Virus record (IMG/VR): IMGVR_UViG_3300035665_000036 | Span: 1-61,490 of that record | Reading direction: 5' to 3' (one strand) | Source of the DNA: a virus | Lineage: Duplodnaviria > Caudoviricetes | Length of the DNA stretch: 61,490 bases | Part shown: positions 534-49,705 of the stretch, one piece after another | Position numbering within the stretch: the stretch's first letter is position 1 | How the letters are laid out: each line of letters begins with the position of its first letter | Translations under genes and position numbers: made by a program | The notes under the pieces: model-generated | The model's input: only the letters and a program-made list of their open reading frames with translations | Databases searched by the model: none | Told to the model about the DNA's origin: nothing

Positions 534-3500
534 TTAACCTACTCCGTACCATCCGTAATCATTTTTGAAATCTGAAGGAACTTCTTTTACAATGTCTTCT
601 TTCAAAAGAATATCAGACTCTTTAAGAACCTTTCCTCCGACAACAGACCTACCTGCAATCGGAATCAAACCGATGTCTATTGCTTCGTTCAGATACTGAT
701 CGTAAAGTTCTTGAGGTAAACCTCTTGCCCTCATCTCATCCAGAGTAGACACTATAACATTTCTGTCCAGTGTTTTTGCATAGATTTTTCTCAAAGCATT
801 TCTGGCATTCAACATATCAGCTGCATTTGCAAAGAAAGCGTCATGAATAGTGCTCGTGGGAATGTTATTTTCCCTTCCCCATAGATGAAAATTTTTAACA
901 ATTGTCGCGTCGTTAGAATGGTTCCCGTTAACTGCAAAGGCAGTACGCGCTCTTGTTGAATCGGCAATATCATTTATTTTACCGTCCTTATTCATCATCT
1001 CTTCCCACCAAGTTACTTCAGTTTTTTGAGGTACTTGCAATATATTGGTGGTCCACTCGCCTTGTTTATTCTTATAAAAAAGCCTTTCTTCAAATTGTTG
1101 TGTGAAATTTTGTTCGATCACTTTACCATCAAAATTAACCCAAGGAACGTTTGTCCATGATTTAGGCATTTTATTGGCACTCAGTAATTCCACTTCAAAC
1201 ACATCTTGCTCTTGAATAAACTTACCTTTTAGTAAATTAGAAGGTGTTGGCAATGCAGGTCTTAAGAAAGACAATTTAAAGTATTTACCACCTGTACGTC
1301 TTGTTTCCGGTGTTGCTGCACCATAAAGAATGTCATGTAGGTTACTATTTGGCTTATAAAAACTTAAGCGTTTCAAAGCTTTCTCACTTAAAGATTCTCC
1401 AGCTTTTAAGCCTAAGATTCTGCTAAGTGTATCTGGCAGAACATACCCTTTCTTTTTACTGCCAAACACTTTTTCTCTCACAATTGCATTCCAATCAAAA
1501 GCAGCTGTGGATGGCTTTGCATTATTCAGATAGTCTTCTGCAAGTCTGCCAAAGAACTTTGTAAAGTCTTTTAAGATAGGTACTTGCTCTCTCAGATGTT
1601 CGCTCATTATTTTTGCAATATCTTTAAAATCACCTGGAGTGACAATCCTTTCATAATTTAGAGAAAGTTTCTCCACAAGATCTTTTGTCTTAGGCTCCAA
1701 GAAATAAAGCTGATCTAAAATCTCATCACCTGGATCTAAACCTTTATTAAAGATGTCTTTAACGTTTTCTCTAAGTGCTCTTAGTTCATCTGCAGTCACT
1801 TGATCAAACTTATCGTACCTTGCAATACGAGCTGATATCTCATTGAGTACAGTTTCACGATCTGAAGCCTTAACAACTAACGTATCCTTATCTTTGCCAA
1901 GGACTTTTGATAATTTACCTTCTACATTAAGTGTGCCAGTCCTTTCACCAGCACCATAGAACGTAACCATATTTTGCGCCTTGGCAGCCTTACGCAAATC
2001 TTTCTCTGTAAGGCCTAGCTTTTCGTTGATTACTTTGAATCGCGGATCGTTGAATGTTGAAGCTGCAATCTCATCATACAATCTTCGCTTTTGATTTGTA
2101 GGTACTACATTTGACAACTCAGCAAGCTGTTTGTTACGGGTGGTCAACGCGATAATTTGGGCACCAGATGATGACGCATCTTGTTCGAGAGCTAAGGATA
2201 TTTTGTAATTACGAAGTTTTTCTAAGTTCTGAGAAGAATATGGATCAACACTTGTGATCTTTTTCCAGTTCCACCCATATAACTCTGCCTCATTGTTTCC
2301 ATAAGTGTATTTAAAAGGTTTTTCAATAGCAGCGCCAACCTGAATTTCACCGAGCAGCTCTACCTCCACAGGCTCCGTTACCCATTTTTCGTTTGTAATA
2401 TCTACATCAGGTACTTGAGTCTTTGTAGGATTTGTGAATTTAGTATCACTAGGTGCTTTATACACGTATAGCTTTTTACCTTTTAAATTCATTGACATTG
2501 CCTTTAATGCTGAATCAATATCACCTGCGAATGAAATTCTTTTTGTTGTATTATCTTCAAATCCTTGCTTAGTTAAAAAGTTAGAAGGTATACGGGGTGT
2601 GAATTTTGTATCTGTAAGTGGTACTGTGCTTATATGAAACAATTCGCCTCTGTCTGGAAAATTGCCTGCAGTCTTTTTGAGATAGTTATCAATCTTAGCT
2701 TGCTCTATGGCAAACCTGAAAAATTTACCCAGTTCTTCACCTTCAATCATATGTGTTATGTCAGCTTCAAGGATCGCTCTGATATCTGCAGGCTTCTTTG
2801 ATAACATCAAATTACCAATTCTGACAATTTCAGGTCTCCACTTTTCAGCAACCTTTTGTCTTCCAGTGATTGTGAGTGAATTATATTTACCTTCAAACTC
2901 ATCACTGAGACCACCTAAGAAAGCACCTATTTGATCTTGGAAATCTTTGAATTCTTCTGGACTGAAATTCTTTGCTTCTGCTGTATTGAGGAACGGTCTA
3001 AACGTCTCTCCAGATTGTGGTCCGATAAGACCTCTGTCATATATCCTTGCTCGATGATCGATAAAAGGATGATTTGAAAAAGAGCGTCCATTAGCTCGTA
3101 ACCACTGCATAGCTTTAAAGCGCTCATAAGCATCACCACGAGATGCGATATACTTTCTGTACTCATTACGCTCATCATAGAACTGAGCTTTTCCTCGATC
3201 ATCTTTGAAGTAGAGTAATTTATCAATGAAATCATAAAAGTCTTCATCCACTTTGTATTTTGTCTTAGATGCCCATGTCAACGCATCCACCATATTCTTG
3301 TCAATAAACTCTTCAGGAAATTCGCTGAAGCTTGAAGATGAAGTGATTGGAATTCTTGTGTCTTCCAAACCCAATATGCCTCTATCCATCCAGTAAGTTT
3401 TATAACCTTCTCTAAATAATAATCGATTATCATCTCTTGTTACGCTTACACGTAAGCCTAAATCTACTTTACGGTTTAGTCGGGAGTACTCTTGTATACG

Positions 3501-5630
3501 TGGATCTGTGACCCTTATATTATACGACATTGTATCATAATATGGACCAAAATAAGCGCCACTCACACGGCTTTTCATTCTGCGTTTTTGAATACCAAAT
3601 GGTTCAACTTCAAAGAATTTATCAACCTTTTTGCTCTCAAGTATTTTCATGCCAAGATCAAACCACTGACGTCTCCAACCATTTAGGTTTGCCATGTTGT
3701 AAAGATCTCTGCCTAACATTACAGCAAATTGATCTCTGTCTGGACTGTCAGCCAAACTTAACCTGTGAGCAAATCTCAAGTAAAATTGATGCAAGTCATC
3801 TTCAGATAATCTGCTTCTGATTTTAATTGGAATTTGAGGATCTAAAAATGTTCTTAATTCATTAGCGATCTTAGGAGCAACTTTATCTTCCCATTGATTT
3901 CTTGCTCTTATATTTTTATAAAAGTTATCGTGCAAATCATCAAGTTGAGTAGCGCCTAAAACAGGATCAATATAATTGTCTTGAAGTAATCGTTTCATCA
4001 CATCTGTATCTTTTCGCAGTTGTGTTTCAATTGCGTCAGAGACGTTCATCACATCAAATTTTATTTGTGACTGAACAACGGCTTTGAAATTACCCCAGAC
4101 TTCTTTATTATCTCGATATCTGCCAAATACAATTCTCAAGTTATCTGCAATTACGGCTCTTTCATTAACACTCATTGTGTCTGATAACTCGTTCACAAAC
4201 TTGGTTATGAATTCCTTATCTCTGTCCAAGAGCTTATCGCTGTCTTTAATTAATTGTAAATTGTTATTGAGTACATAAGTGTTTGGTTGATAAAACCGGA
4301 CGTCTTCATATCTACCTGTGGCAGGATTGAATTTAATCTGGTCTTCTCTCGGTGCAGAGGTTAGCATCCTATTTCTAGTAGCTTTCTTATTGTGAAGGAG
4401 AGTGCCACGATAATTAGTATAAGAGAGTGTTCCTTCAAGCTCTTTAGTTTGTAATATGTAGTAATCAAGTAATGTTTTCCTCAATTTATCATTCTGAATA
4501 AAATCATCCGGTGTGGTTGCCCATAACTGCATTGCATCTAATTTCGCCTTAGCGTTGGCAAACTTAATTGTGTCGCCATTTAACTCATAAGTAGAATCTG
4601 TTGCGGCTCTCAGTTGTTTAACGCCTAGACTCTCGCCCTTATAATTCACAAATTGATCCACAGTCAGTTTACCTGTGTTCAAAAGATCAACTTTTTGATA
4701 ATCACCTAAATGTTTAAATTGAGTATCTCTCGGTTGTCGCATGAGCCAATCATTATAGCTTTCTTTCAGTGGCGTTTGACCATCATAATAGGCAATTTGC
4801 TCTTTTGTTAAACCTTCTAAGTTTCTTCGTCTCACTTGAGCAACACCTTCTAGCTTAGAAATGTCATCCCAGGATTTAAAAACTGGAACTGTTGTGGAGC
4901 GGCAATTAAAGTGCGCAGGAGGCAGATGCTCCGTGTCCCCCATGTCATAGATATGCCCATCGCGGTGCGCACACAGAGGCGTGGTCCTCGCGTCCAGAAC
5001 GGCCACATACTGCCACCCTCTGAGTGCCTTTTCGTTGGCACGGTAAACAGCGTGGTCAACCTGAGCGTGGACACTGGTGATTGCAGTAACCACTAATGAT
5101 CTAGACTGCATTCTGGTTATATTGTGAATGTTGCCTTTACGAATTTCTAAAGCAATTTCATTTGTTGTCTTACCTTCAGAAATACCTTTGCGAATCAAGG
5201 CTTCAATTCTTTTCTTTTCAGAAGTACTCACACCTGACCAACCAGAAGCAAGTGTTCTATTTTCAAACAACGGTTTTTCAAGAACAATCTCTTCTGATAT
5301 ACGTCTTTGCGGTCTTTCTGTGCGCCAGATTTTACCCATCGTTGTTTCGACAGTTTGATACGCGAAAGATGCTTGATCTGCTGCGAAGTCTAGTAAAGAA
5401 CGCTTTGATGTATTATGAGCTTCACGATAAGTACGTAATAGCTCTTTATCCAAAGCGTCTTTGAATTTCTTTGATTTTAAATCGGAGGAACCTACCAACT
5501 TGTCTAACCTAATAACGTGGCCATCAATGATTACTTCAATCTTATCATTGACACCTTTCTCAAATAAGCGTATCATTGCCGCTCTGTCTAGTGCTTTGTC
5601 ATATATTTCAGTATTTACATTAATGGCCAT
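534..5630 (-). CDS. MuF/SPP1 gp7-like head morphogenesis protein fused to a T7-family DNA-directed RNA polymerase (putative virion RNAP) with an internal ART-like insertion
   Basis: MuF motifs: WQYVAVLDARTTPLC...PPAHFNCRS (C243) and ESYNDWLMRQP. RNAP motifs: IDHRARIY...PQSGE (D858), motif A EQDASSSGAQ (D1151), motif B RKAAKAQNMVTFYG, NGNHSNDA, motif C TIHDAF (H1596/D1597). Located after the portal gene. Confidence 0.92.
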   Translation of the reverse strand: MAINVNTEIYDKALDRAAMIRLFEKGVNDKIEVIIDGHVIRLDKLVGSSDLKSKKFKDALDKELLRTYREAHNTSKRSLLDFAADQASFAYQTVETTMGKIWRTERPQRRISEEIVLEKPLFENRTLASGWSGVSTSEKKRIEALIRKGISEGKTTNEIALEIRKGNIHNITRMQSRSLVVTAITSVHAQVDHAVYRANEKALRGWQYVAVLDARTTPLCAHRDGHIYDMGDTEHLPPAHFNCRSTTVPVFKSWDDISKLEGVAQVRRRNLEGLTKEQIAYYDGQTPLKESYNDWLMRQPRDTQFKHLGDYQKVDLLNTGKLTVDQFVNYKGESLGVKQLRAATDSTYELNGDTIKFANAKAKLDAMQLWATTPDDFIQNDKLRKTLLDYYILQTKELEGTLSYTNYRGTLLHNKKATRNRMLTSAPREDQIKFNPATGRYEDVRFYQPNTYVLNNNLQLIKDSDKLLDRDKEFITKFVNELSDTMSVNERAVIADNLRIVFGRYRDNKEVWGNFKAVVQSQIKFDVMNVSDAIETQLRKDTDVMKRLLQDNYIDPVLGATQLDDLHDNFYKNIRARNQWEDKVAPKIANELRTFLDPQIPIKIRSRLSEDDLHQFYLRFAHRLSLADSPDRDQFAVMLGRDLYNMANLNGWRRQWFDLGMKILESKKVDKFFEVEPFGIQKRRMKSRVSGAYFGPYYDTMSYNIRVTDPRIQEYSRLNRKVDLGLRVSVTRDDNRLLFREGYKTYWMDRGILGLEDTRIPITSSSSFSEFPEEFIDKNMVDALTWASKTKYKVDEDFYDFIDKLLYFKDDRGKAQFYDERNEYRKYIASRGDAYERFKAMQWLRANGRSFSNHPFIDHRARIYDRGLIGPQSGETFRPFLNTAEAKNFSPEEFKDFQDQIGAFLGGLSDEFEGKYNSLTITGRQKVAEKWRPEIVRIGNLMLSKKPADIRAILEADITHMIEGEELGKFFRFAIEQAKIDNYLKKTAGNFPDRGELFHISTVPLTDTKFTPRIPSNFLTKQGFEDNTTKRISFAGDIDSALKAMSMNLKGKKLYVYKAPSDTKFTNPTKTQVPDVDITNEKWVTEPVEVELLGEIQVGAAIEKPFKYTYGNNEAELYGWNWKKITSVDPYSSQNLEKLRNYKISLALEQDASSSGAQIIALTTRNKQLAELSNVVPTNQKRRLYDEIAASTFNDPRFKVINEKLGLTEKDLRKAAKAQNMVTFYGAGERTGTLNVEGKLSKVLGKDKDTLVVKASDRETVLNEISARIARYDKFDQVTADELRALRENVKDIFNKGLDPGDEILDQLYFLEPKTKDLVEKLSLNYERIVTPGDFKDIAKIMSEHLREQVPILKDFTKFFGRLAEDYLNNAKPSTAAFDWNAIVREKVFGSKKKGYVLPDTLSRILGLKAGESLSEKALKRLSFYKPNSNLHDILYGAATPETRRTGGKYFKLSFLRPALPTPSNLLKGKFIQEQDVFEVELLSANKMPKSWTNVPWVNFDGKVIEQNFTQQFEERLFYKNKQGEWTTNILQVPQKTEVTWWEEMMNKDGKINDIADSTRARTAFAVNGNHSNDATIVKNFHLWGRENNIPTSTIHDAFFANAADMLNARNALRKIYAKTLDRNVIVSTLDEMRARGLPQELYDQYLNEAIDIGLIPIAGRSVVGGKVLKESDILLKEDIVKEVPSDFKNDYGWYGVG

Positions 5631-10375: not shown

Positions 10376-10545
10376 TATATCTCCTCATTGGTAGAATTGA
10401 TAAAGCTGAGCCAACTCAAATATCTAGCTTCTTTCATATTCTCTATGTCTGCTTCAGTGTAAGAATGATCTGAAGGTAAAATTATGGCGTCTCTGTAAGT
10501 ATTATCATCTCTGATAATTTCAAAAGAAATTGATATAGTCTCCAT
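10375..10545 (-). CDS. Small hypothetical protein (probable true start ATG 10545, METISISF...)
   Basis: AAGGA RBS upstream. This start avoids overlap with 10550..10918. Confidence 0.55.
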   Translation of the reverse strand: METISISFEIIRDDNTYRDAIILPSDHSYTEADIENMKEARYLSWLSFINSTNEEI

Positions 10546-16499: not shown

Positions 16500-16584
16500 A
16501 CAAATGTACCTTTAATTTCATCAACTTAACAAAAAGCACATCCATTAGTACAAAGTGTCCTTCAAGAACACTAACGATTGTAAT

Positions 16585-16704
16585 TCAATCTCTCTTTTGT
16601 TTGTTTTAAACAATTAACACTGATTAAAGTGATTTATCATTAACAAACTCAATCTCTCTTTTGTTTGTTTTAAACAATTAACACTGATTAAAGTGATTTA
16701 TCAT
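16585..16704. repeat. Tandem direct repeat: two identical 56-nt copies, period 64
   Basis: TCAATCTCTCTTTTGTTTGTTTTAAACAATTAACACTGATTAAAGTGATTTATCAT at 16585-16640 and 16649-16704. Confidence 0.95.
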
Positions 16705-16849
16705 CAACAATTAACAAACTCAATCAAAAGAGATTAAAGAATCTGATGTACTAAAAGATATACTCTAACTAATCTGTAACCCAGGCAAAGCCTAAGTATA
16801 CCCTTATTGTTCTATCTTTTCTCGGTGTTCCATTTCGGAGAAACACTTT

Positions 16850-16865
16850 GGGTTAATTTAACGGG
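16850..16865 (-). promoter_or_regulatory. Class B promoter-like motif (copy 2), head of the packaging/late module
   Basis: Exact 16-mer. Confidence 0.8.
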
Positions 16866-23023: not shown

Positions 23024-23039
23024 GGGTTAATTTAACGGG
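23024..23039 (-). promoter_or_regulatory. Class B promoter-like motif (copy 3)
   Basis: Exact 16-mer overlapping the stop codon of 23032..23388. Confidence 0.8.
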
Positions 23040-27805: not shown

Positions 27806-28247
27806 ATCCCAAGATGCCTGTTGCTCTCCGAGCCAAGTCGAAGAAATTATTTCTCACAAAATCACTGCAGTTGGTCACATCGGTGCCGCTTGCAACATTC
27901 GCAATTGCGACCAAACCATCCATGACTGCTTTGTTAGATCCAATATCTACCTGCAAGAAGGCAATATCTGCGTTCAAAGACTCCTTCACGGCTTCCGACT
28001 GTAAAAAGCTCTGTTGCACCGCAGTCAACATGAACAACAATGGTTCGCCTATATTATCTTGGATGACTGTGTTGATATATTCCAAGTCAGCTCTCGCCTC
28101 ATCATTGTCAAAACGATTTTCAACTGATGCTTCTTGGATTTCAACCGTATTTTCTTCGACCAATACTTCTTGATTATTTTCCATTTTTATTCCTTTATTT
28201 AATTGGGCAAATGCCGCTTGCACACTCATCATTTGACTCGTAATCAA
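27786..28247 (-). CDS. Hypothetical acidic protein (true start probably MENNQE)
   Basis: An AAGGA RBS precedes the internal ATG. Confidence 0.55.
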   Translation of the reverse strand: MITSQMMSVQAAFAQLNKGIKMENNQEVLVEENTVEIQEASVENRFDNDEARADLEYINTVIQDNIGEPLLFMLTAVQQSFLQSEAVKESLNADIAFLQVDIGSNKAVMDGLVAIANVASGTDVTNCSDFVRNNFFDLARRATGILGFVEKPQ

Positions 28248-30937
28248 TGTTACCGGTCAGTGATGAGATGATTTTTGTTTTACCGACAAGATCATTGAAT
28301 TGTTCTTTTGTTATCGTTTCGAAAGGCGCTTGAGCAAACCCATGATCAGAATGTAATAAGAACGACAATGATTTGTGATTATGCTTGTAGTTTTCTCTTA
28401 GATATTGTTTGATATCTTCAATCTCTTCCTTGCGATAATACACGGTGCAACTTACACTGTTATCAGACCAAATTGATTGCAGCTTTTTGATCATCTTTAA
28501 CTGATCAATTGCTGTCATTTCTTTAGCCAATACAGTACCTTCTGGATAACTGAAAGGAAATGTCACCACCACTGTGTTGTAATCTTCAGAACCATCAAAG
28601 TTCTTCACGAATTCCACAGGGTAACCATTTTCTTTACATACACCGACTAAAGAATGCGAAGCCGCGATGCGTATTCTTCTGTACATATACTGTGCATATG
28701 CAGGATGAATACCTGGAGTCACACCTGGTAACAGTGATAATGTTCCAGAAGGTTTTACGGTTGTCAACTTGATTGAACGGTTCATGTTGTTTTCTTCTGA
28801 ATATTCTTCATCAAATATTCTTAAGAATTCATAACATTCATCCAACCAATCGATTTGTTCTTCAGTTGCTTGGAGAATACCAGTGACACCGATACCCATT
28901 CGCATGTTCTTGTGAACAATATGTTCTGTTTCTCTATTATGAGAAGGTAAGAGCAATGAATGTTTGTTTATGCGATACAGCAATTGAGCTACGTCAAATA
29001 ACTCTTCTTTCGATTCAATATTTGGCAAGAAAATTTCTGCCAAACAGCATGTCTCAAAATTTGCCAATGATTGTTCAGCACCTCTATTGTTACCTGCATT
29101 TGCAGGGATTAGTCATTTCTGCTAATCTCTATGTGTCGCCACATAGAACAGACTATATCACCACCCTTTTCAGGGGTTTATCATCCGAGCTTGTATTGAA
29201 ATGATGGAAGAACATACTCAGAAACTATTTCTTCAAACAATTCTGAGTGTGCATTTGGTACAGCTAAATCATATTTATTACCCTTTTTTCTGGTATTTAT
29301 TTCCAGACCAAAGGTATCTTTCAATGATCTTTTAATTAACATTAAATCACCATAAGATAAATTATTTAAATGCAATCGATAAGAAGGTTTTGAATTAGCC
29401 CATCTTTTATCTTGGTAACGGCTCCCATCTGCCATGAATGCTATTGCTAGCATTTCTTCATCCATCATTGTTAACATATGGGGATCAATTACCTTCCTAC
29501 CATCTAAATAAATTCTTTCTGCTATCTTTGTTAATTTAGGATGATTTTTAGATTGCAACCTTAACTGTTGCTCTCTGTTAAAGCCATCTGCTGTGTAAAT
29601 TTTAGGTTCCGTTAATTTATAACCTAACGGAATCTCTTCCAGTGTTAATATTACTTTTTCTAGATAATCTCTATGTTTTTCTAACATATTAATTACCAAA
29701 CATGCATTAATTGATTCTCCAAAATACTGAAGACATCCATCAAACATTGCATAAGAATACAAACGTTTATTCAAATCTTTACTCATAGTCGTTGCTCCTC
29801 CCATATCGGGTTGGATCAGGATTGTCTATAAAGACTTCCCCTGAATTTAGATAAATTAATTCAAAATAGATTACTCTATTAGGCCGCTAGCTTTAACGGA
29901 TTATAACCTTCTACGTCTGGGTCTGGATACTCAAATTCTCCAAGTCTACCTATTTTACGTGAAAGATCTAGATTAATAAGGCCATAGGGCTCAGAGCCTC
30001 CTTCATAGCCTCTCCAGAAATACTCATGCAAATCATTGATATCATTACATATTACACTGTTATTGCTCATTGCACGATATGATGGTATATTCCCCATGCT
30101 CCAGTTTTTTGCCAATAGATACTCAACGTCATCGGGATCACCAATTGCAATTTGAGCACTTCTACGGACATTACCGGCCACAATAATTGCACCGATAACA
30201 TTCATAATATCCAATGCATCTACAGGTCTGATCTTCTTTCCTTTCTTGTTTTCGAGTATTTTGGATATTTCACCGATACCCCAGCAGAGATCTTCTGGAC
30301 CGCTTGCAACTCCGCCAAAACCTTTAATTGGAGTTCCCTTACCACGGATGGCTTGTGTGGAATACGTAAAAGTGCCATTGTCTGCTGTCTCACTTAAAAA
30401 TGCAGACTTAAGAACTTTACCCAAGAATTTAACCCAACCTTCTCTTGAGTCCGGAATGATGTAATCTGCACCACCATTGTCAACTCTTGTCGGTGCTCTG
30501 AACCAATCTTTGACCGCAGGCAGCTTTTCCACATTCTTTTTCTGAATGTTAAAACCCACACCACTGCCTAAAGCCAGCATGTCCATCGCCCATGTGAATG
30601 GTCTGACAGGGCTATCGATTGTTGTGAAGGCACAATTTTGCAATGAAGCCAACCCATATCTACCAACTGTTGCTGTACCAGCTTGCCACCAATAGCGACC
30701 TGCCACAGAGCCTTTTAAACCCAATAAATGTAAAGCCAATCGGTATTCTTCATCTTTTGTGAAGCCACAACCAAATTGTTCGTCACATGCATTGATTACA
30801 CGTAACACAGTGTCAGGAAATTCCTCTGTCTCATCTGACACTTCGTTCAGCTTTCTTGCATAGGTTCTTTTGTAAGTTAAATAACCCACAGTTGACCAAG
30901 GAGTTTCGATCTTCGGTAATTCTTCTTTTGTTAGCAT
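28195..30937 (-). CDS. nrdJ: Class II (adenosylcobalamin-dependent, monomeric type) ribonucleotide reductase; exons 30937-29896 and 29081-28195, 642 aa spliced
   Basis: SLQNCAF, GGVASGP, VAGNVRRSA, the spliced motif GYNP-C-AEQSL..ETCCL, TTVKPSGT and C-terminal CASGICPIK. Confidence 0.93.
29082..29895 (-). mobile_element. Group I intron in nrdJ
   Basis: The 5' exon ends CCGU and pairs with IGS GCGG (U.G wobble). Core elements AAATTCAGGGGAA..GACAATCCTGA, GCAACGACTA and GATATAGTCT (P7) are present, with a terminal G. Removal restores the catalytic Cys codon T^GT. Confidence 0.9.
29181..29786 (-). CDS. Intron-encoded LAGLIDADG homing endonuclease (two-motif type)
   Basis: LYSYAMFDG and LAIAFMADG motifs. 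A GGAGGAG RBS precedes ATG 29786. Confidence 0.85.
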   Translation of the reverse strand: MSKDLNKRLYSYAMFDGCLQYFGESINACLVINMLEKHRDYLEKVILTLEEIPLGYKLTEPKIYTADGFNREQQLRLQSKNHPKLTKIAERIYLDGRKVIDPHMLTMMDEEMLAIAFMADGSRYQDKRWANSKPSYRLHLNNLSYGDLMLIKRSLKDTFGLEINTRKKGNKYDLAVPNAHSELFEEIVSEYVLPSFQYKLG

Positions 30938-32773: not shown

Positions 32774-33244
32774 TTATATTTCTCCTTTGAAATCGCCCCA
32801 AGACAGGGCTTTGTTTAAACGTTCTTTATGTCTTTCGGTTATATTTTCACTCACATTCCAAGAAATCTTTTCGATACGTTTGTTGTACCATTCCTTCTTG
32901 GTCGGTGCTTCCACGTGGCACAAAGACCATGTTTCTGCGTATGAAAGTGCTCCTTTGGCTTTGTATTGCTCTATGCAAATGAACTCAAAATCAGTCTTTG
33001 GTCTTTCGGCCAACATTTCTGAAATTGAATTACTTGAAGAGCAATATGTTTTCCAATTTGATTCTTGACCTTTATTTAACTTACCTGAGCCTTTGAAAAG
33101 TTTCTTTCCAAGATAGAAGCGTTTCATAAAGGGATCTCGAATCACATATATGAAACCCGAATAAGCATCTTTGTCCATCGGTTCTTCAAAATGCCAATGT
33201 CCATTTTTACTCAACGGTTTCACGATTACTTTAGGAATCACCAT
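32774..33244 (-). CDS. GIY-YIG-family endonuclease
   Basis: GFIYVI...FYLGKK...WKTYCSSS...E...WYN. Confidence 0.75.
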   Translation of the reverse strand: MVIPKVIVKPLSKNGHWHFEEPMDKDAYSGFIYVIRDPFMKRFYLGKKLFKGSGKLNKGQESNWKTYCSSSNSISEMLAERPKTDFEFICIEQYKAKGALSYAETWSLCHVEAPTKKEWYNKRIEKISWNVSENITERHKERLNKALSWGDFKGEI

Positions 33245-38087: not shown

Positions 38088-38103
38088 GGGTTAATTTAAC
38101 GGG
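38088..38103 (-). promoter_or_regulatory. Class B promoter-like motif (copy 4), head of the replication module
   Basis: Exact 16-mer. Here it extends to AATTAACCCTCA, identical to the upstream half of the T3 promoter. Confidence 0.85.
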
Positions 38104-40000: not shown

Positions 40001-43000
40001 CTATGCAAAACAATATTCTGAGTCTAAAATTAAATTTAAGTCGAGCGTACCTATTTCTACATTACTAATATCTCCTTGTATATCATCCATAAGACTATTG
40101 AGAGGATCATTTGCATATAACTCCACAAATGTCTCTCTCACCAATTTAAACAGCTTCGGCATATCAGCTAACAAACATCCAAATGAATCATGTATGGTTG
40201 TCATTGGAAAATCAGCTCTGTATACCGTCAATGCCAAGTGTGCTGCATCCAAGCTGTGAATACAATTTGGACTCGCCCCTTGAGCTTGCTTACCTTTTGA
40301 TGGCACATGATCTTCAATGAAACACACTGCCAGTTGAAGCGTATTTTCAAAGTAACCTGAGCTGTTTCTTAAACCCAATGGCGGTCCATATTGCACCCAG
40401 ATTTTCTTCACTTTTCCCTCTGTATAGTGTTGTACCACAGGAAAATTGGTTATTGGAACAGTCCAAGAAAGAAATCTTTCTTCTGCTTCCGCCTTTTTGC
40501 CTGCTTCTTCAAATACAGTTAAGAGCTGCATAGGGCGTTCCAAGGCCGCTTTGCAAGTCTCCAGCACCATTCTGCCCATATAAGAACCCCACTTATGTTC
40601 CATAAATAGTAGAAGATCTATACCATGTTTTCTTGCATCATCAATTTGTTGTTGACCAAGCCCATATGCAGTTCCGCCATACGGCAACGTCATTACATTT
40701 CTTTTGACAACTTTTCTACGTTGTTTTACGTCTTTAACTCTGCACCAATATATAGGTGCAATTTTAGGTATTATATCTATGTTTTTGTCTCTAAATTCAC
40801 GAATACGCTCTAAAAGTTCTTTTCTTTGTTCACTTTTAAATTCAGCATTGTAAATATCCTTTTTCAATTGTATTAATGTATCTATTACAGTTTCGGCTTC
40901 TCCAATTTCTTTTTTGGTGAATTTTGATTTTTCAATTTCCAGCTTATCCCACACATAATCTGCAACATATTTATATAGATCTCCAGGCAACTCAAGAGGT
41001 ACTAAATTAACGTGCGGTGCAGTTATTTCATCTTTTGTAAGTGCAGATAAATGTTGACTACCGTTGTTCGACAATATCTTCGATAGTGGTCGTTATGCAC
41101 TATCCGCTTGGCGGCTAAATATGTGTCCAACTCTTGCCTACTCGTATTGAGTAAATACAACCACAAGAAACTCCAAAAAGCTTGCCTATTTCAGTATTTG
41201 AATAGCCATTTTTTATGAGTTTTTTTATTTCAATTACATCATCATTGGTCAGTTTTACAGCCTTTCCTGCCTTTCTGTTTTCACCGATACTGTGTAAACC
41301 TGTTTTAAAAGCATGCCTGTGATTGTCACCAACCGACATCCATTCTAAATTAGAAACCTCGTTGTTGGTTTTTATACCGTCAATATGATTAACTGTCTCT
41401 AATTTATCGGGATTTTCTAAAAATGCTTCCGCAACAAGTCTGTGTACTTTTCTTGTCAGTGCCTTACCTTTTACGTGAAGTGTCACCAACTCATAGCCAT
41501 AGCGATCAAGCCTTGTTCTCATTATCAAATTTCTTTTATTGCTTATAACTATTCCATCATAAGTGATAGAATACTCTCCGTTTGTATTTTCTATTTCTTT
41601 TATCATTTTAATTACCTTGTTTAAATAAAAATCAGCCGCCAAGCTGCTGCAAATTACTCTGCAGATGAGACTATATCTTGCATAATAAATATGCCCCTGT
41701 GTTTCGAGCCACTCGGCCCTACATAATAGTCGTTACACCTAAGAACGTCTGAGGACGTTATTTTGGCTCGGTATTGTCCTTTGCAGGAGTTTCACCGAAT
41801 TTACAGGATTTAACGACGGCTCTTACAAACCGTCAACAAAGCACTCTAAACTTGAAGAATACCCAAAATCATTGAATGGATCTAGATGGAATCCATGCTT
41901 TATTTGCCACTCTCTCAATTTTTTAAGCTCATTACATGCCGCAAGGAATTGCCAAGGTTTATCTGCTTTCATCCAGCCTTGATTCACCTTGGGTTGCATT
42001 GCGTAATCAAGTAATATGTCTTCATTATCTGTGGACCATAAATACCTGTCCTTGAGTGGAATCTTATCCGTTTTTGCCCCGTCTTCTCTTCCAGATGCTC
42101 CTGCCCAATTTGAAGCAATACTGACCATAAGCCAAAAGAAACCCTCCTTTCCAATCTCCTTTTTGTCTTCTCTCAGCAAAAGACCTTTTGCTAAGTCAGT
42201 ACCTTGTTCATGAAAATAAGCTGTTGCTGGATATCTTCTACCACGGAAGTCATAATAATAACGCATTTGTTCAGAAAATTTCGCTAATATTTTCTCGTTA
42301 ATTAACATGTGACCAATTTCTTCCTGTTCGTATACAGTTAATTGTGCCAGGATGCACACCGAATAATAATGCAATTTCTTTATTGGAAAAACCTGCAGAG
42401 AACATTGCTTTTATATCTCTCACGGACTCTTCATTTAATTTAGAATTTATTGCCGTGGTACCCTTCACCATCAATCCCAGATCTTTTGCATGTCTGACAT
42501 TTTCTAGTTGTGTGCACCATTCTAAATTATCAATATTATTATTCTTTTTGTTTGCATCTAAGTGATTTACTTTTGGCAATTTAAGCGGATTTGGTATAAA
42601 AACTAATGCCACTAATCTGTGAACCATTTCTTTCTTACTTTTACCGTTATAACTCAGTGGCACTTGTAAATAACCTAGACCATTGTCATTTTGTTTCAAG
42701 ATACGTCCGGCTTTTATATATTCCCCGCCAAAAGTACTTTTGACAATCCTATCTTTACTCTTTACATTGCCATAAGAAGAAACTTCATAATACTCATCAA
42801 AATCTTTCCAGATTTCCATAATAATCTCCGACTATTTTAAGTTAATTAACAGCTGTATATTACTATACAGTTCAGACTATATCATCTTGGCATCCGCCAA
42901 GCTCCGCGCTTCCACTAAGCTATTAGTGTACTCTACTAAGATTAACAAACATCCGTCTGTTCTTTTCGATAGTCGTTGCACCTTTTGAAGGCTCAGGATT

Positions 43001-43795
43001 GTCCTAAGGATGTTTCCTGAATTCACGGAGTTTACTACCACCGAAATATTAATGGTAGAAAGTTTTCCCAATGAACCTTTTCGCAATATTTCCGATGGCT
43101 TTTGCTTCTCTCAGCTTAGTGGCTTTTGCTTCAGGATTTTGAGAATCCCATATATCAGAAAATGCTTCTGTTTTATTTCGAAGCGCCCAACTGTACATGT
43201 GAAACACGTCATTGTTAACACGCCAACCCATTGCTTGAGATCTATTTATGCACTCAAATATGATCGGGTGTGTTTCTGGAGTGACTTTTGACATCACTTC
43301 CTTGCTACCTGTCTTAATCATAACAACACCGGATTCATGCCTCAAATTTGTCCAAGGCGCATACGGTGTTAATGACGGTAATTTTTCCACGGCATTTACT
43401 TCGACTTTCTCCCACAATTCGCATATGATTTCATCATTTAGCACTTGAATGATGTACGCTGCATGTTTGCCATTTGACTTGCCCAAGAGTACTGTGAGCA
43501 CTTCAAGCTCTTCAAATGAGTAAAGTAAGAATGCCCCTGTCTTTGCAGCCAAGGAAGAGTCTTTTTTCATCTTGTATTTGCTTCTGACTCCATGTCCAAT
43601 TGCAGAAATAACTTCGGTTAGATAAATGGTGTTCTTTTTTGAACCCTTTTTTGACCTTGTATATAGATAGACGATTGATACAAGAACATCGAAGTAGTCT
43701 TCCACTTCAAGCTCCTTCAAGTATTTCAAAGGATTTTGATTTGATATTTCATTTGCCAATCTGGATTTCAATGATGATATTAATATTTGTCTCAT
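40001..43795 (-). CDS. T7-family single-subunit RNA polymerase (RNAP2); exons 43795-43052, 42263-41829 and 41071-40001, 749 aa spliced
   Basis: Spliced motifs FYH^RYYYDFRGRRY...EQGTDLAKGLL and motif A FVDG^SNNGSQH. Also KPWQFLAAC, motif B RKVVKRNVMTLPYG, PNCIHSLDA and motif C TIHDSFG. Confidence 0.93.
41072..41828 (-). mobile_element. Group I intron 2 of RNAP2, inserted in motif A
   Basis: Exon GACGGU pairs with IGS GCCGUC (U.G). Core elements AAATTCGGTGAAA..GACAATACCGAGCC, GTAACGACTA and AAGATATAGTCT are present, with a terminal G at 41072. Confidence 0.92.
41115..41606 (-). CDS. Intron-encoded HNH homing endonuclease with a C-terminal HTH-like domain
   Basis: VHRLVAEAF...VNHIDGIKTNN.VSNLEW...N. 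An AAGGT RBS precedes ATG 41606. Confidence 0.92.
   Translation of the reverse strand: MIKEIENTNGEYSITYDGIVISNKRNLIMRTRLDRYGYELVTLHVKGKALTRKVHRLVAEAFLENPDKLETVNHIDGIKTNNEVSNLEWMSVGDNHRHAFKTGLHSIGENRKAGKAVKLTNDDVIEIKKLIKNGYSNTEIGKLFGVSCGCIYSIRVGKSWTHI
42264..43051 (-). mobile_element. Group I intron 1 of RNAP2
   Basis: Exon CUACCAU pairs with IGS GUGGUAG (U.G), and a P10 pairing UAAUA/UAUUA is possible. Core elements GAATTCAGGAAA..GACAATCCTGAGCC, GTGCAACGACTA and GATATAGTCTG are present, with a terminal G at 42264. Confidence 0.92.
42298..42819 (-). CDS. Intron-encoded NUMOD4-HNH homing endonuclease
   Basis: EIWKD...YEVSSYGNVKS (NUMOD4) and VHRLVA..F...VNHLDANKKNN..NLEW. Confidence 0.93.
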   Translation of the reverse strand: MEIWKDFDEYYEVSSYGNVKSKDRIVKSTFGGEYIKAGRILKQNDNGLGYLQVPLSYNGKSKKEMVHRLVALVFIPNPLKLPKVNHLDANKKNNNIDNLEWCTQLENVRHAKDLGLMVKGTTAINSKLNEESVRDIKAMFSAGFSNKEIALLFGVHPGTINCIRTGRNWSHVN

Positions 43796-45028: not shown

Positions 45029-45126
45029 TCATTGCGATCACTTCCATAGTTTCGCCATTTTGATTTTTGTAAATGTGATAATATTGTTTCATTTTCTTTC
45101 CTCTAAAAAATTATAGTTATTGATGT

Positions 45127-45153
45127 TATCATATAAGATACCATATTTTCCGC
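45127..45153 (-). promoter_or_regulatory. Class A (early) promoter-like motif, copy 1
   Basis: GCGGAAAATATGGTATCTTATATGATA, intergenic. Three copies fit GCGnAAAnTnnnGTATCTTATATGATA. Confidence 0.75.
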
Positions 45154-45154
45154 A

Positions 45155-45457
45155 TCAAATTCCACGTGAATCTATGATGACTTGCTGTTTTCTTTTACGT
45201 ATTTTGCGTGTGTATGTCACTGTGTTTGCTCCAGGGACATTTTCAGTGACTAAATGTACAGGTTCGACAGATCTGTTTACATACCCATTTTCCATTTGCA
45301 TTTTATTTGCAACCAACTCAGTTTGAATACTTTTCAATCTATTACTTATAACGCCGTTTGCTGCCACTACATTTTTTCTATCCATACTACCATCTAAAAG
45401 ACCTTGTAAAAGTGCTTCTAAAACTGCATCTATATCTTTTGTTGTTTTTAAACTCAT
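45155..45457 (-). CDS. Hypothetical protein
   Basis: ORF track with a GGAG RBS. Confidence 0.6.
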   Translation of the reverse strand: MSLKTTKDIDAVLEALLQGLLDGSMDRKNVVAANGVISNRLKSIQTELVANKMQMENGYVNRSVEPVHLVTENVPGANTVTYTRKIRKRKQQVIIDSRGI

Positions 45458-47229: not shown

Positions 47230-47311
47230 TTTACTTCTCCTTTTTGATTTCTTGACATCTGCATAATATTATGAACGTGTCGCACAGTTCACATTTAGTT
47301 ATTTTCTCTTT

Positions 47312-47338
47312 TATCATATAAGATACTCAATTTTCCGC
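47312..47338 (-). promoter_or_regulatory. Class A (early) promoter-like motif, copy 2
   Basis: GCGGAAAATTGAGTATCTTATATGATA. Confidence 0.75.
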
Positions 47339-47557
47339 GTTTTCCTTCACCACAAACATTACATTCTCGTTATCATGACGCTCATACTCTTTACACAATA
47401 CACGTTCACAAATTTGAAATGATTTAATAAAGACACACCCAGTACAGGAACCATCAGAATTCCCGGCAACCTCTATGATCTCCCATGTGATATCATTCAT
47501 TTTCTTCGACCTCTCTGTATTTGTATATGACGTTTCTACCGTCGGTTCTTTCATCAT
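47327..47557 (-). CDS. Small Cys-rich protein (CTGCVF...C...C)
   Basis: ORF track. Resembles the repeat unit of 27047..27805. Confidence 0.5.
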   Translation of the reverse strand: MMKEPTVETSYTNTERSKKMNDITWEIIEVAGNSDGSCTGCVFIKSFQICERVLCKEYERHDNENVMFVVKENAEN

Positions 47558-49528: not shown

Positions 49529-49559
49529 AGTTTGCCTCCGTAAGATATCTTTTATCTGA

Positions 49560-49586
49560 TATCATATAAGATACCCAAATTTACGC
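49560..49586 (-). promoter_or_regulatory. Class A (early) promoter-like motif, copy 3
   Basis: GCGTAAATTTGGGTATCTTATATGATA at the head of the early region. Confidence 0.75.
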
Positions 49587-49689
49587 ACTTTGAGTATCCT
49601 TTAATTGGTTCTAGATTTCGTGATAAATAAAGAACCAACTAAAATAATTTTAATCTTCAGTTTCCTTCAGTGCACTGGAAGAACACTTA

Positions 49690-49705
49690 GGGTTAATTTA
49701 ACGGG
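49690..49705 (-). promoter_or_regulatory. Class B promoter-like motif (copy 5)
   Basis: Exact 16-mer. Shares the downstream AAGTGTT with copy 2. Confidence 0.8.

Follow-up and report, generated by a model that had tools for sequence, protein, structure and literature searches.

Does a phage RNA polymerase (RNAP) gene that lies in three separate pieces on one strand still encode a single enzyme, and what occupies the space between the pieces? The question is raised by positions 40001-43795 of the IMG/VR virus record IMGVR_UViG_3300035665_000036 (Duplodnaviria; Caudoviricetes), a sequence of 61,490 base pairs (bp) that was analyzed at full length and is hereafter referred to as the window (GC content 38%; estimated completeness 89%). 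An earlier note, made from the sequence alone, had read this region as a single-subunit RNAP gene broken by two group I introns, each with its own endonuclease gene. Our analysis makes it very probable that the locus is one T7-type single-subunit RNAP gene interrupted by two related, mobile group I introns, possibly of the IA-like phage type.

A polymerase gene in three exons

The polymerase is encoded by three segments of the minus strand, given here with lengths in amino acids (aa); their limits are exactly those proposed in the earlier note.

43052-43795, minus strand: RNAP exon 1, aa 1-248; begins with the ATG at 43795 and ends ...TTC TAC CAT, the last base being the U of intron helix P1; aligns with the N-terminal part of uninterrupted homologues.
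41829-42263, minus strand: RNAP exon 2, aa 249-393; contains DFRGR and ends ...GAC GGT, the D-G of motif A; corresponds to T7 RNAP 418-526.
40001-41071, minus strand: RNAP exon 3, aa 394-749; holds the rest of motif A, motifs B and C and the C-terminal ...YCFA, with the stop codon at 40001-40003; corresponds to T7 RNAP 541-594 and 626-853.

Joining the exons by script produced 2250 nucleotides (nt) in frame, which encode 749 aa and hold no stop codon before the terminal one, and gave the FYH|RYYYDFRGR and VDG|SNNG junctions that had been predicted. Both junctions are free of gaps when aligned to the uninterrupted RNAPs of roseophage DSS3_VP1 and Bordetella phage BB8: TFYH|RYYYDFRGR at junction 1 aligns with AFYHLYNFDFRGR, and FVDG|SNNGSQHL at junction 2 aligns with YIDGTNNGVQHL (DSS3_VP1 / Bordetella phage BB8 in each case). 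The Pfam profile RNA_pol (PF00940) is matched collinearly by exon 2 (profile 1-77, 3.8e-14) and exon 3 (profile 93-373, 4.6e-44).

Alignment to T7 RNAP chains places DFRGR at 421-425, the D-G at 537-538, the R/K/Y residues at 627/631/639 and HDSFG in motif C. The first break falls between T7 equivalents 416|417, four codons ahead of D421-x-x-G-R425, and the second between G538|S539, one codon past Asp537, so that one intron does lie within motif A, as the note had claimed. The Asp, Lys and Tyr residues of T7 RNAP, including Asp537 of motif A, are taken here to be catalytic. By its PF00940 matches and its collinear DxxGR, A, B and C motifs, the predicted product is a T7-type single-subunit RNAP.

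Two group I introns with covarying cores

The two sequences between the exons match Rfam family RF00028, the group I introns.

42264-43051, minus strand: group I intron 1, 788 nt; opens with an in-frame TAA and ends with G; RF00028 match of 61.2 bits, E 1.8e-15, at 43061-42853.
41072-41828, minus strand: group I intron 2, 757 nt; ends with G; RF00028 match of 51.9 bits, E 1.1e-12, at 41849-41647.

These matches, obtained by scanning slices of about 250 nt, cover the full model and exceed its gathering score of 50 bits, and thus supply the covariance-model check that the earlier note had proposed. Both begin in the upstream exon, so the P1 helix takes in the splice site. P1 is CUACCAU/GUGGUAG in intron 1 and GACGGU/GCCGUC in intron 2, and in each the last U of the exon pairs with a G. 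An in-frame stop codon lies at or soon after the start of each intron, and the terminal G of both introns is the only position that restores the conserved reading frame, as is also the case in four related loci (L018, L020, L021 and L024 in our numbering). P7 is formed by conserved R and S elements (..AACGACUAU.. and ..GAUAUAGUC..). In both introns, the open reading frame (ORF) lies 3′ of P7 and P9 inside a loop closed by a long stem, after which come a short hairpin and the terminal G. The P1 U·G, the P7 elements and the terminal G had all been pointed out from the sequence of the two introns and recur in the related cores described below. One further candidate was dismissed: GATATAGTC at 10532 (plus strand), considered as a fourth P7/S element, lies antisense within the tail-fibre genes and is not matched by the intron hidden Markov model (HMM), and we take it to be a chance occurrence.

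Eight intron cores of five distinct types, from the window and the same four related loci, were compared for covariation. The cores align at 63% mean column identity, and RNAalifold recovered P1, P3, P4, a P7.2-like hairpin and P9 from them, with 21 of 40 pairs compensatory. For counting, we used the RNAalifold helices together with P6 and the P7 pseudoknot, named by hand. Standard pairs occupy 98.6% of the 348 pair cells of this structure, compared to 30.5-40.7% when the partners are slid by 1-3 columns, and half of the pairs (22/44) are changed on both sides. None of 500 shuffles reached the observed pairing or covariation score, and 11 of 500 reached the number of further pair types. P3, P4, P6, P7, the P7.2-like hairpin and P9 are each 92.6-100% paired; P7 and P6 are invariant and contribute no covariation evidence. 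P8 is visible by eye and was left out of the counts, as its register differs between introns in the alignment.

The U·G pair of P1 at the splice site is kept in all eight related introns. At each of four insertion sites, differences in the exon sequence are matched by changes in P1, with five of its seven pairs compensatory, which is the behaviour required of an internal guide sequence.

Introns of subgroup IA carry extra helices, P7.1/P7.2, between P7 and P3′. One covarying hairpin of this region, the P7.2-like hairpin, is present in 8/8 introns, and all six of its pairs are compensatory. By eye, intron 1 and the motif B introns of relatives (see below) show a second hairpin, which is not seen in intron 2.

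We note several points that weigh against reading the two sequences as spliced introns. RF00028 gave no match in a gathering-score scan of the whole window or in an E-value scan of 2.5 kb (40800-43300), and its matches appeared only in the slices of about 250 nt; that of intron 2 is just 1.9 bits over the threshold. P5 of intron 1 is very short (3 bp by eye), and a search for P10 found no clear helix in either intron. The covariation analysis has only eight sequences, and its structure was partly chosen from those same sequences. None of the runs listed for the sequence is an RNA run and the contigs compared are all DNA, so that splicing is something we infer. Finally, the intron ends hold in-frame start codons, an ATG before exon 2 and a TTG before exon 3.

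These start codons also fit a different explanation, in which each of the three fragments would be translated on its own and the products would combine into an active enzyme, as in the two-subunit N4-type RNAP, the intervening DNA consisting of free-standing endonuclease genes. The available portion of PMC5418858 describes N4/G7C-type phages with an RNAP of two polypeptides and, in G7C, an HNH gene between the halves. Yet both intervening sequences here hold full covarying group I cores, with P1 helices built from the exon ends, and one break falls one codon past the catalytic aspartate of motif A. Moreover, exons 2 and 3 lack a GGAG-like ribosome site in front of them, whereas the HNH ORFs do have one, although this is a weak point because the site at the RNAP start codon is itself poor. 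We regard separately translated fragments as extremely unlikely and one gene with two introns as the better account.

Endonuclease genes and the distribution of introns among relatives

Each intron contains one ORF.

42298-42819, minus strand: ORF of intron 1, 173 aa, preceded by GGAG; NUMOD4 (4.6e-11), HNH_3 (1e-7) and HTH_38 (1.2e-5) domains.
41115-41606, minus strand: ORF of intron 2, 163 aa from ATG (the ORF extends to a TTG at 41642); HNH_3 (6.4e-8) and HTH_38 (2.8e-5) domains.

The Pfam scan found no NUMOD4 match in the ORF of intron 2. Both products belong to PHROG 59 (1.6e-52 for that of intron 1, which also matches the I-HmuI structure PDB 1U3E at E 1.1e-9), have a mutual identity of 41% (E 4e-32) and share the C-terminal pattern I..IR.G..W.H, in keeping with the earlier description of related HNH endonucleases with similar tails placed 3′ of P7. 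The loop that holds the ORF is closed in intron 1 by a palindromic stem of 10-11 bp (GTTAATTAAC) and in intron 2 by a stem of 13 bp (GCTTGGCGGCTGA / TTAGCCGCCAAGC); such a stem of 10-13 bp brackets the ORF in six of the seven ORF-bearing introns of the window and its relatives. The ORFs encode I-HmuI-like HNH homing endonucleases, predicted to be nickases. The motif B introns of relatives encode another HNH type, with an AP2-like tail as judged by eye.

Related loci were collected by a search of IMG/VR with exon 3 (21 loci) and by a metagenome scan (29 more, 13 of them marked as having sequence in common with the IMG/VR loci). The state of each RNAP gene was read by local tblastn with the joined protein, and introns were surveyed by running nhmmer with an HMM built on the eight cores.

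L005, L006, L008-L013, L015-L017, L019, L022 (13 full-length IMG/VR loci): RNAP gene uninterrupted; near-identical pairs include L005/L011 and L009/L010.
L030, L032, L034-L036, L039, L040, L042, L043 (9 full-length metagenome loci): uninterrupted.
L007, L014 (partial IMG/VR loci, from aa 306/332): uninterrupted across the covered part.
L046 (partial metagenome locus, from aa 416): uninterrupted across the covered part.
L018 (close relative, 94-100% aa identity): intron 1 present, intron 2 absent, and a 738-nt intron (2534-3271) within the motif B Tyr codon (MTLP-Y-GG; T7 Tyr639).
L020 (close relative): intron 1 absent, intron 2 present, and an ORF-less 256-nt intron (1674-1929) in the same motif B Tyr codon.
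L051: intron at about 750-1442 in the motif B codon equivalent to Tyr639.
L021 (1793-2512), L024 (5294-6000), L049 (about 4305-5000): motif B intron between ..VKR|NVM.. (T7 R632|S633).
L048: begins within the 3′ end of an intron at the ..VKR|NVM.. site (1-40).
L053: begins with an intron-like 3′ tail (about 380-461) that ends just before QQQ (aa 532|533; G532|Q533).

The comparison with intronless homologues that had been suggested thus yielded 22 related RNAP genes (13 from IMG/VR and 9 from metagenomes) that cover all sites and are uninterrupted, in addition to the gap-free junctions described above. When the introns are removed, the RNAP genes of the relatives are all open and their motifs continuous. 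The tail in L053 is a possible fifth intron site, seen in part. L023, L025, L054 and L056 cover no intron site, and L044, L045 and L055 are duplicate or partial.

The presence or absence of an intron is exact to its boundaries. Contigs from run X2, which belongs to another study, span the four intron boundaries of the window with 0 differences. A contig from run X4, about 95% alike, keeps intron 1, and at intron 2 its alignment skips 764 nt with 7 letters between, which is exactly 757 nt fewer. The exon bases flanking intron 2 (41823-41835 / 41066-41074) read GACGGT|TCGAAC in the window and GATGGA|AGCAAC in L018, which has no intron 2; the protein is identical there despite several synonymous changes. 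These synonymous differences beside the insertion site suggest co-conversion or a nuclease-resistant target.

The same comparisons bear on the idea that the introns have ceased to splice and that the RNAP gene is a pseudogene, its role covered by the RNAP domain of a 1698-aa protein encoded elsewhere in the window. This second, divergent RNAP domain and the narrow passage of intron 2 over the Rfam threshold would fit such decay. All exons are open, however; all catalytic motifs and the C-terminus are complete and are conserved in relatives of 55-100% identity, nothing in the ribozyme helices or in either endonuclease ORF is broken, and the same allele recurs unchanged in run X2. Decay is barely credible on this evidence, and we return to an RNAP gene with two functional introns as the probable state.

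With both introns in place, expression of the polymerase would proceed as follows. The 3.8-kb primary transcript would fold into a group I core at each intron, and the end of the upstream exon would pair with the internal guide sequence to form P1, with the U·G at the cut site. Attack by an external guanosine would follow, the terminal G of the intron would dock and the exons would be ligated, leaving the 2250-nt reading frame for a single 749-aa polymerase. The I-HmuI-like HNH endonuclease with a helix-turn-helix tail, encoded in the P9.1 loop of each intron, would act on the intronless RNAP alleles of relatives in the same infected cell, nicking or cutting them close to where the intron inserts, and repair would copy the intron into the cut allele (homing).

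The introns are dispensable and polymorphic, because 22 related genes are intronless and close relatives differ in their intron sets. This polymorphic distribution is consistent with homing, and the reading of the RNAP introns as selfish homing elements is the best available. The RNAP gene of this clade is a hotspot for mobile group I introns.

The earlier note had assigned the introns a different role, namely that their splicing gates the early-to-middle switch. In such a scheme, the phage would use splicing efficiency to time the RNAP and hence the change from early to middle/late expression. The RNAP gene does follow a small-ORF block and precede the replication module on one strand, and is therefore plausibly early and needed for later genes; it carries two serial introns in an essential enzyme, so that the full-length product needs two splicing events. 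Splicing of T4 introns is also said, in the title of a 2007 reference by Sandegren and Sjoberg, to depend on translation and growth state, which we count in favour of a gate. Nevertheless, the 22 intronless genes and the three close relatives that differ in occupied sites count against it: because relatives are intronless or have other sites occupied, the RNAP programme runs without these introns. An intact homing endonuclease gene in each intron is the signature of a selfish element, and no regulatory element was found. Splicing is needed for full-length RNAP, with no sign of regulation, and we consider a gate unsupported and unlikely.

A wider reading, which we offer tentatively and consider doubtful as a whole, builds on the selfish-element account. 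One ribozyme family would have been re-targeted by guide change to at least four, perhaps five, sites in catalytic motifs (DxxGR, A and B), accompanied by two endonuclease types (HNH with a helix-turn-helix tail at the sites of introns 1 and 2, and HNH with the AP2-like tail at the motif B sites). Intron variants would disable each other's RNAP gene in co-infection, and the clade would represent a first step toward the split RNAPs of N4 type.

The phage and its place among known systems

The minus strand carries 72 of the 74 larger ORFs of the window, and every DNA run that contains the region is labelled as a lake-water metagenome. Along the direction of transcription, the small-ORF block is followed by the RNAP gene and by genes for a nucleotide kinase-like protein, DNA polymerase, exonuclease, primase-helicase, ribonucleotide reductase, ligase, terminase, tail fibres, portal and a very large head protein. 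A megablast search of the RNAP region against deposited phages found no similar DNA. The nearest named RNAP homologue is that of roseophage DSS3_VP1 (Naomviridae), with 38.5-38.8% identity across exon 3.

Other elements in the window touch on the same themes. The HMM built on the RNAP introns also revealed a third group I intron (29082-29895, minus strand), which lies in the ribonucleotide reductase gene, the PHROG 367 halves of which lie at 29879-30937 and 28195-29067. Its ORF (29181-29804; LAGLIDADG_2) sits inside the core, between the P7 strands, and Rfam gives it only 34.3 and 23.8 bits. This intron presumably splits the Cys codon (T|GT) of N-P-C, the splice sites having been placed by eye and from a motif of the reductase. 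A free-standing SegE-like GIY-YIG endonuclease gene (32774-33244, minus strand), flanked by the primase-helicase and exonuclease genes, is another mobile element of the replication module.

The 1698-aa protein (534-5630, minus strand) has an N-terminal Mu F-like head-morphogenesis domain and, in its C-terminal 600 aa or so, a very divergent T7-family RNAP domain (PF00940, 9.1e-11) in which stretches resembling motifs A, B and C align to the 749-aa enzyme. A sequence search of PDB with this protein found no match. It is possibly a virion-packaged RNAP, in which case the phage would have two single-subunit RNAPs.

An exact 16-mer, GGGTTAATTTAACGGG on the plus strand (CCCGTTAAATTAACCC in the sense of the genes, on the minus strand), occurs in five copies with 0 expected (513-528, 16850-16865, 23024-23039, 38088-38103 and 49690-49705). 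All copies are intergenic and lie at module boundaries, and the 16-mer is conserved in 18 of 56 loci, where it frequently flanks the RNAP gene at either end. We propose it as a candidate phage-specific promoter, which either RNAP could read. In the non-coding gap adjoining one of the copies, a 64-nt unit stands in two tandem copies that are 97% identical (16582-16709). A 42-nt repeat is present three times in the small-ORF block upstream of the RNAP gene (45117-45158, 47302-47343 and 49550-49591; 71-100% identity), and these copies are possibly early promoters or operators.

Full-text searches of the openly accessible literature, main texts only, turned up no published intron in the gene of a T7-type single-subunit RNAP. 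As far as these searches show, the earlier note's remark that few or none are known in T7-type RNAP genes stands; in the genes of multisubunit phage RNAPs, group I introns have been published. As an element, a group I intron that carries an HNH gene is nothing unusual; it is the host gene that is apparently new. With this locus, the T7/mitochondrial-type RNAP, an enzyme used across biotechnology, joins the phage genes in which mobile group I introns have settled. The clade also offers a natural allele series (alleles with 0, 1 or 2 introns, at four to five sites in all, some having an endonuclease gene and some lacking one) that is useful for studying intron re-targeting, homing-site evolution and nuclease-mediated phage competition.

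There is a practical side to this as well. Default pipelines miss such introns and would annotate the gene as three fragments and two HNH genes; the note had foreseen that automated annotation would call three fragments, and the default whole-window Rfam scan, which returned nothing, fits that expectation. Because default scans miss the introns and the gene would be annotated in fragments, single-subunit RNAPs in metagenomic phages may be under-called.

The closest counterparts of the introns themselves lie in other phage genes. Their cores share about 69% identity with introns that interrupt the DNA polymerase genes of Aeromonas T4-like phages and also resemble sequences beside HNH genes between the annotated halves of portal and large terminase genes in Autographiviridae; among the 60 core matches listed, none is in an RNAP gene. 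The DNA polymerase introns with I-HmuI-type HNH nickases (SPO1/SP82; Aeromonas T4-like gene 43; T7-like PhiI/W31; Pf-WMP3; LUZ24) are of the same ribozyme type and carry the same endonuclease family. Like the introns here, they are inserted in catalytic motifs of an essential polymerase and are polymorphic among relatives. The present case differs in that the host gene is a T7-type RNAP, in having two introns per gene and in having four to five occupied sites across the clade.

Among RNAP genes, the portion of PMC11620839 available describes a group I intron in PhiPA3 gp210, the gene for the beta subunit of a multisubunit phage RNAP, and that of PMC12350094 describes introns of groups I and II in the virion RNAP beta′ genes of AR9/PBS1. 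In these, as far as the two texts extend, a self-splicing intron with an HNH endonuclease adjoins the catalytic residues of a phage RNAP gene, as it does here. The same passages have the nuclease able to hit the intronless homologue in a co-infecting phage, and PhiPA3 disables the PhiKZ RNAP gene in this way. According to these sources, however, the enzymes are multisubunit, bacterial-like RNAPs of jumbo phages, whereas the present one is a single-subunit RNAP of T7/mitochondrial type from an uncultured phage of about 70 kb.

The RNAP of DSS3_VP1 is of similar length (732 versus 749 aa) and has collinear motifs, but it is uninterrupted and comes from a distant, marine phage, while the window phage comes from lake-water metagenomes. 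The two-subunit RNAP of N4/G7C, with an HNH gene between RNAP1 and RNAP2, resembles the present locus in that a T7-family RNAP gene is broken by homing-endonuclease DNA (PMC5418858). There the halves are separate genes, and the portion of that paper available describes no intron; here, complete ribozymes should restore one polypeptide. By analogy, the present clade looks like the intron-bearing starting stage in the hypothesis on split RNAPs outlined in the same portion of PMC5418858.

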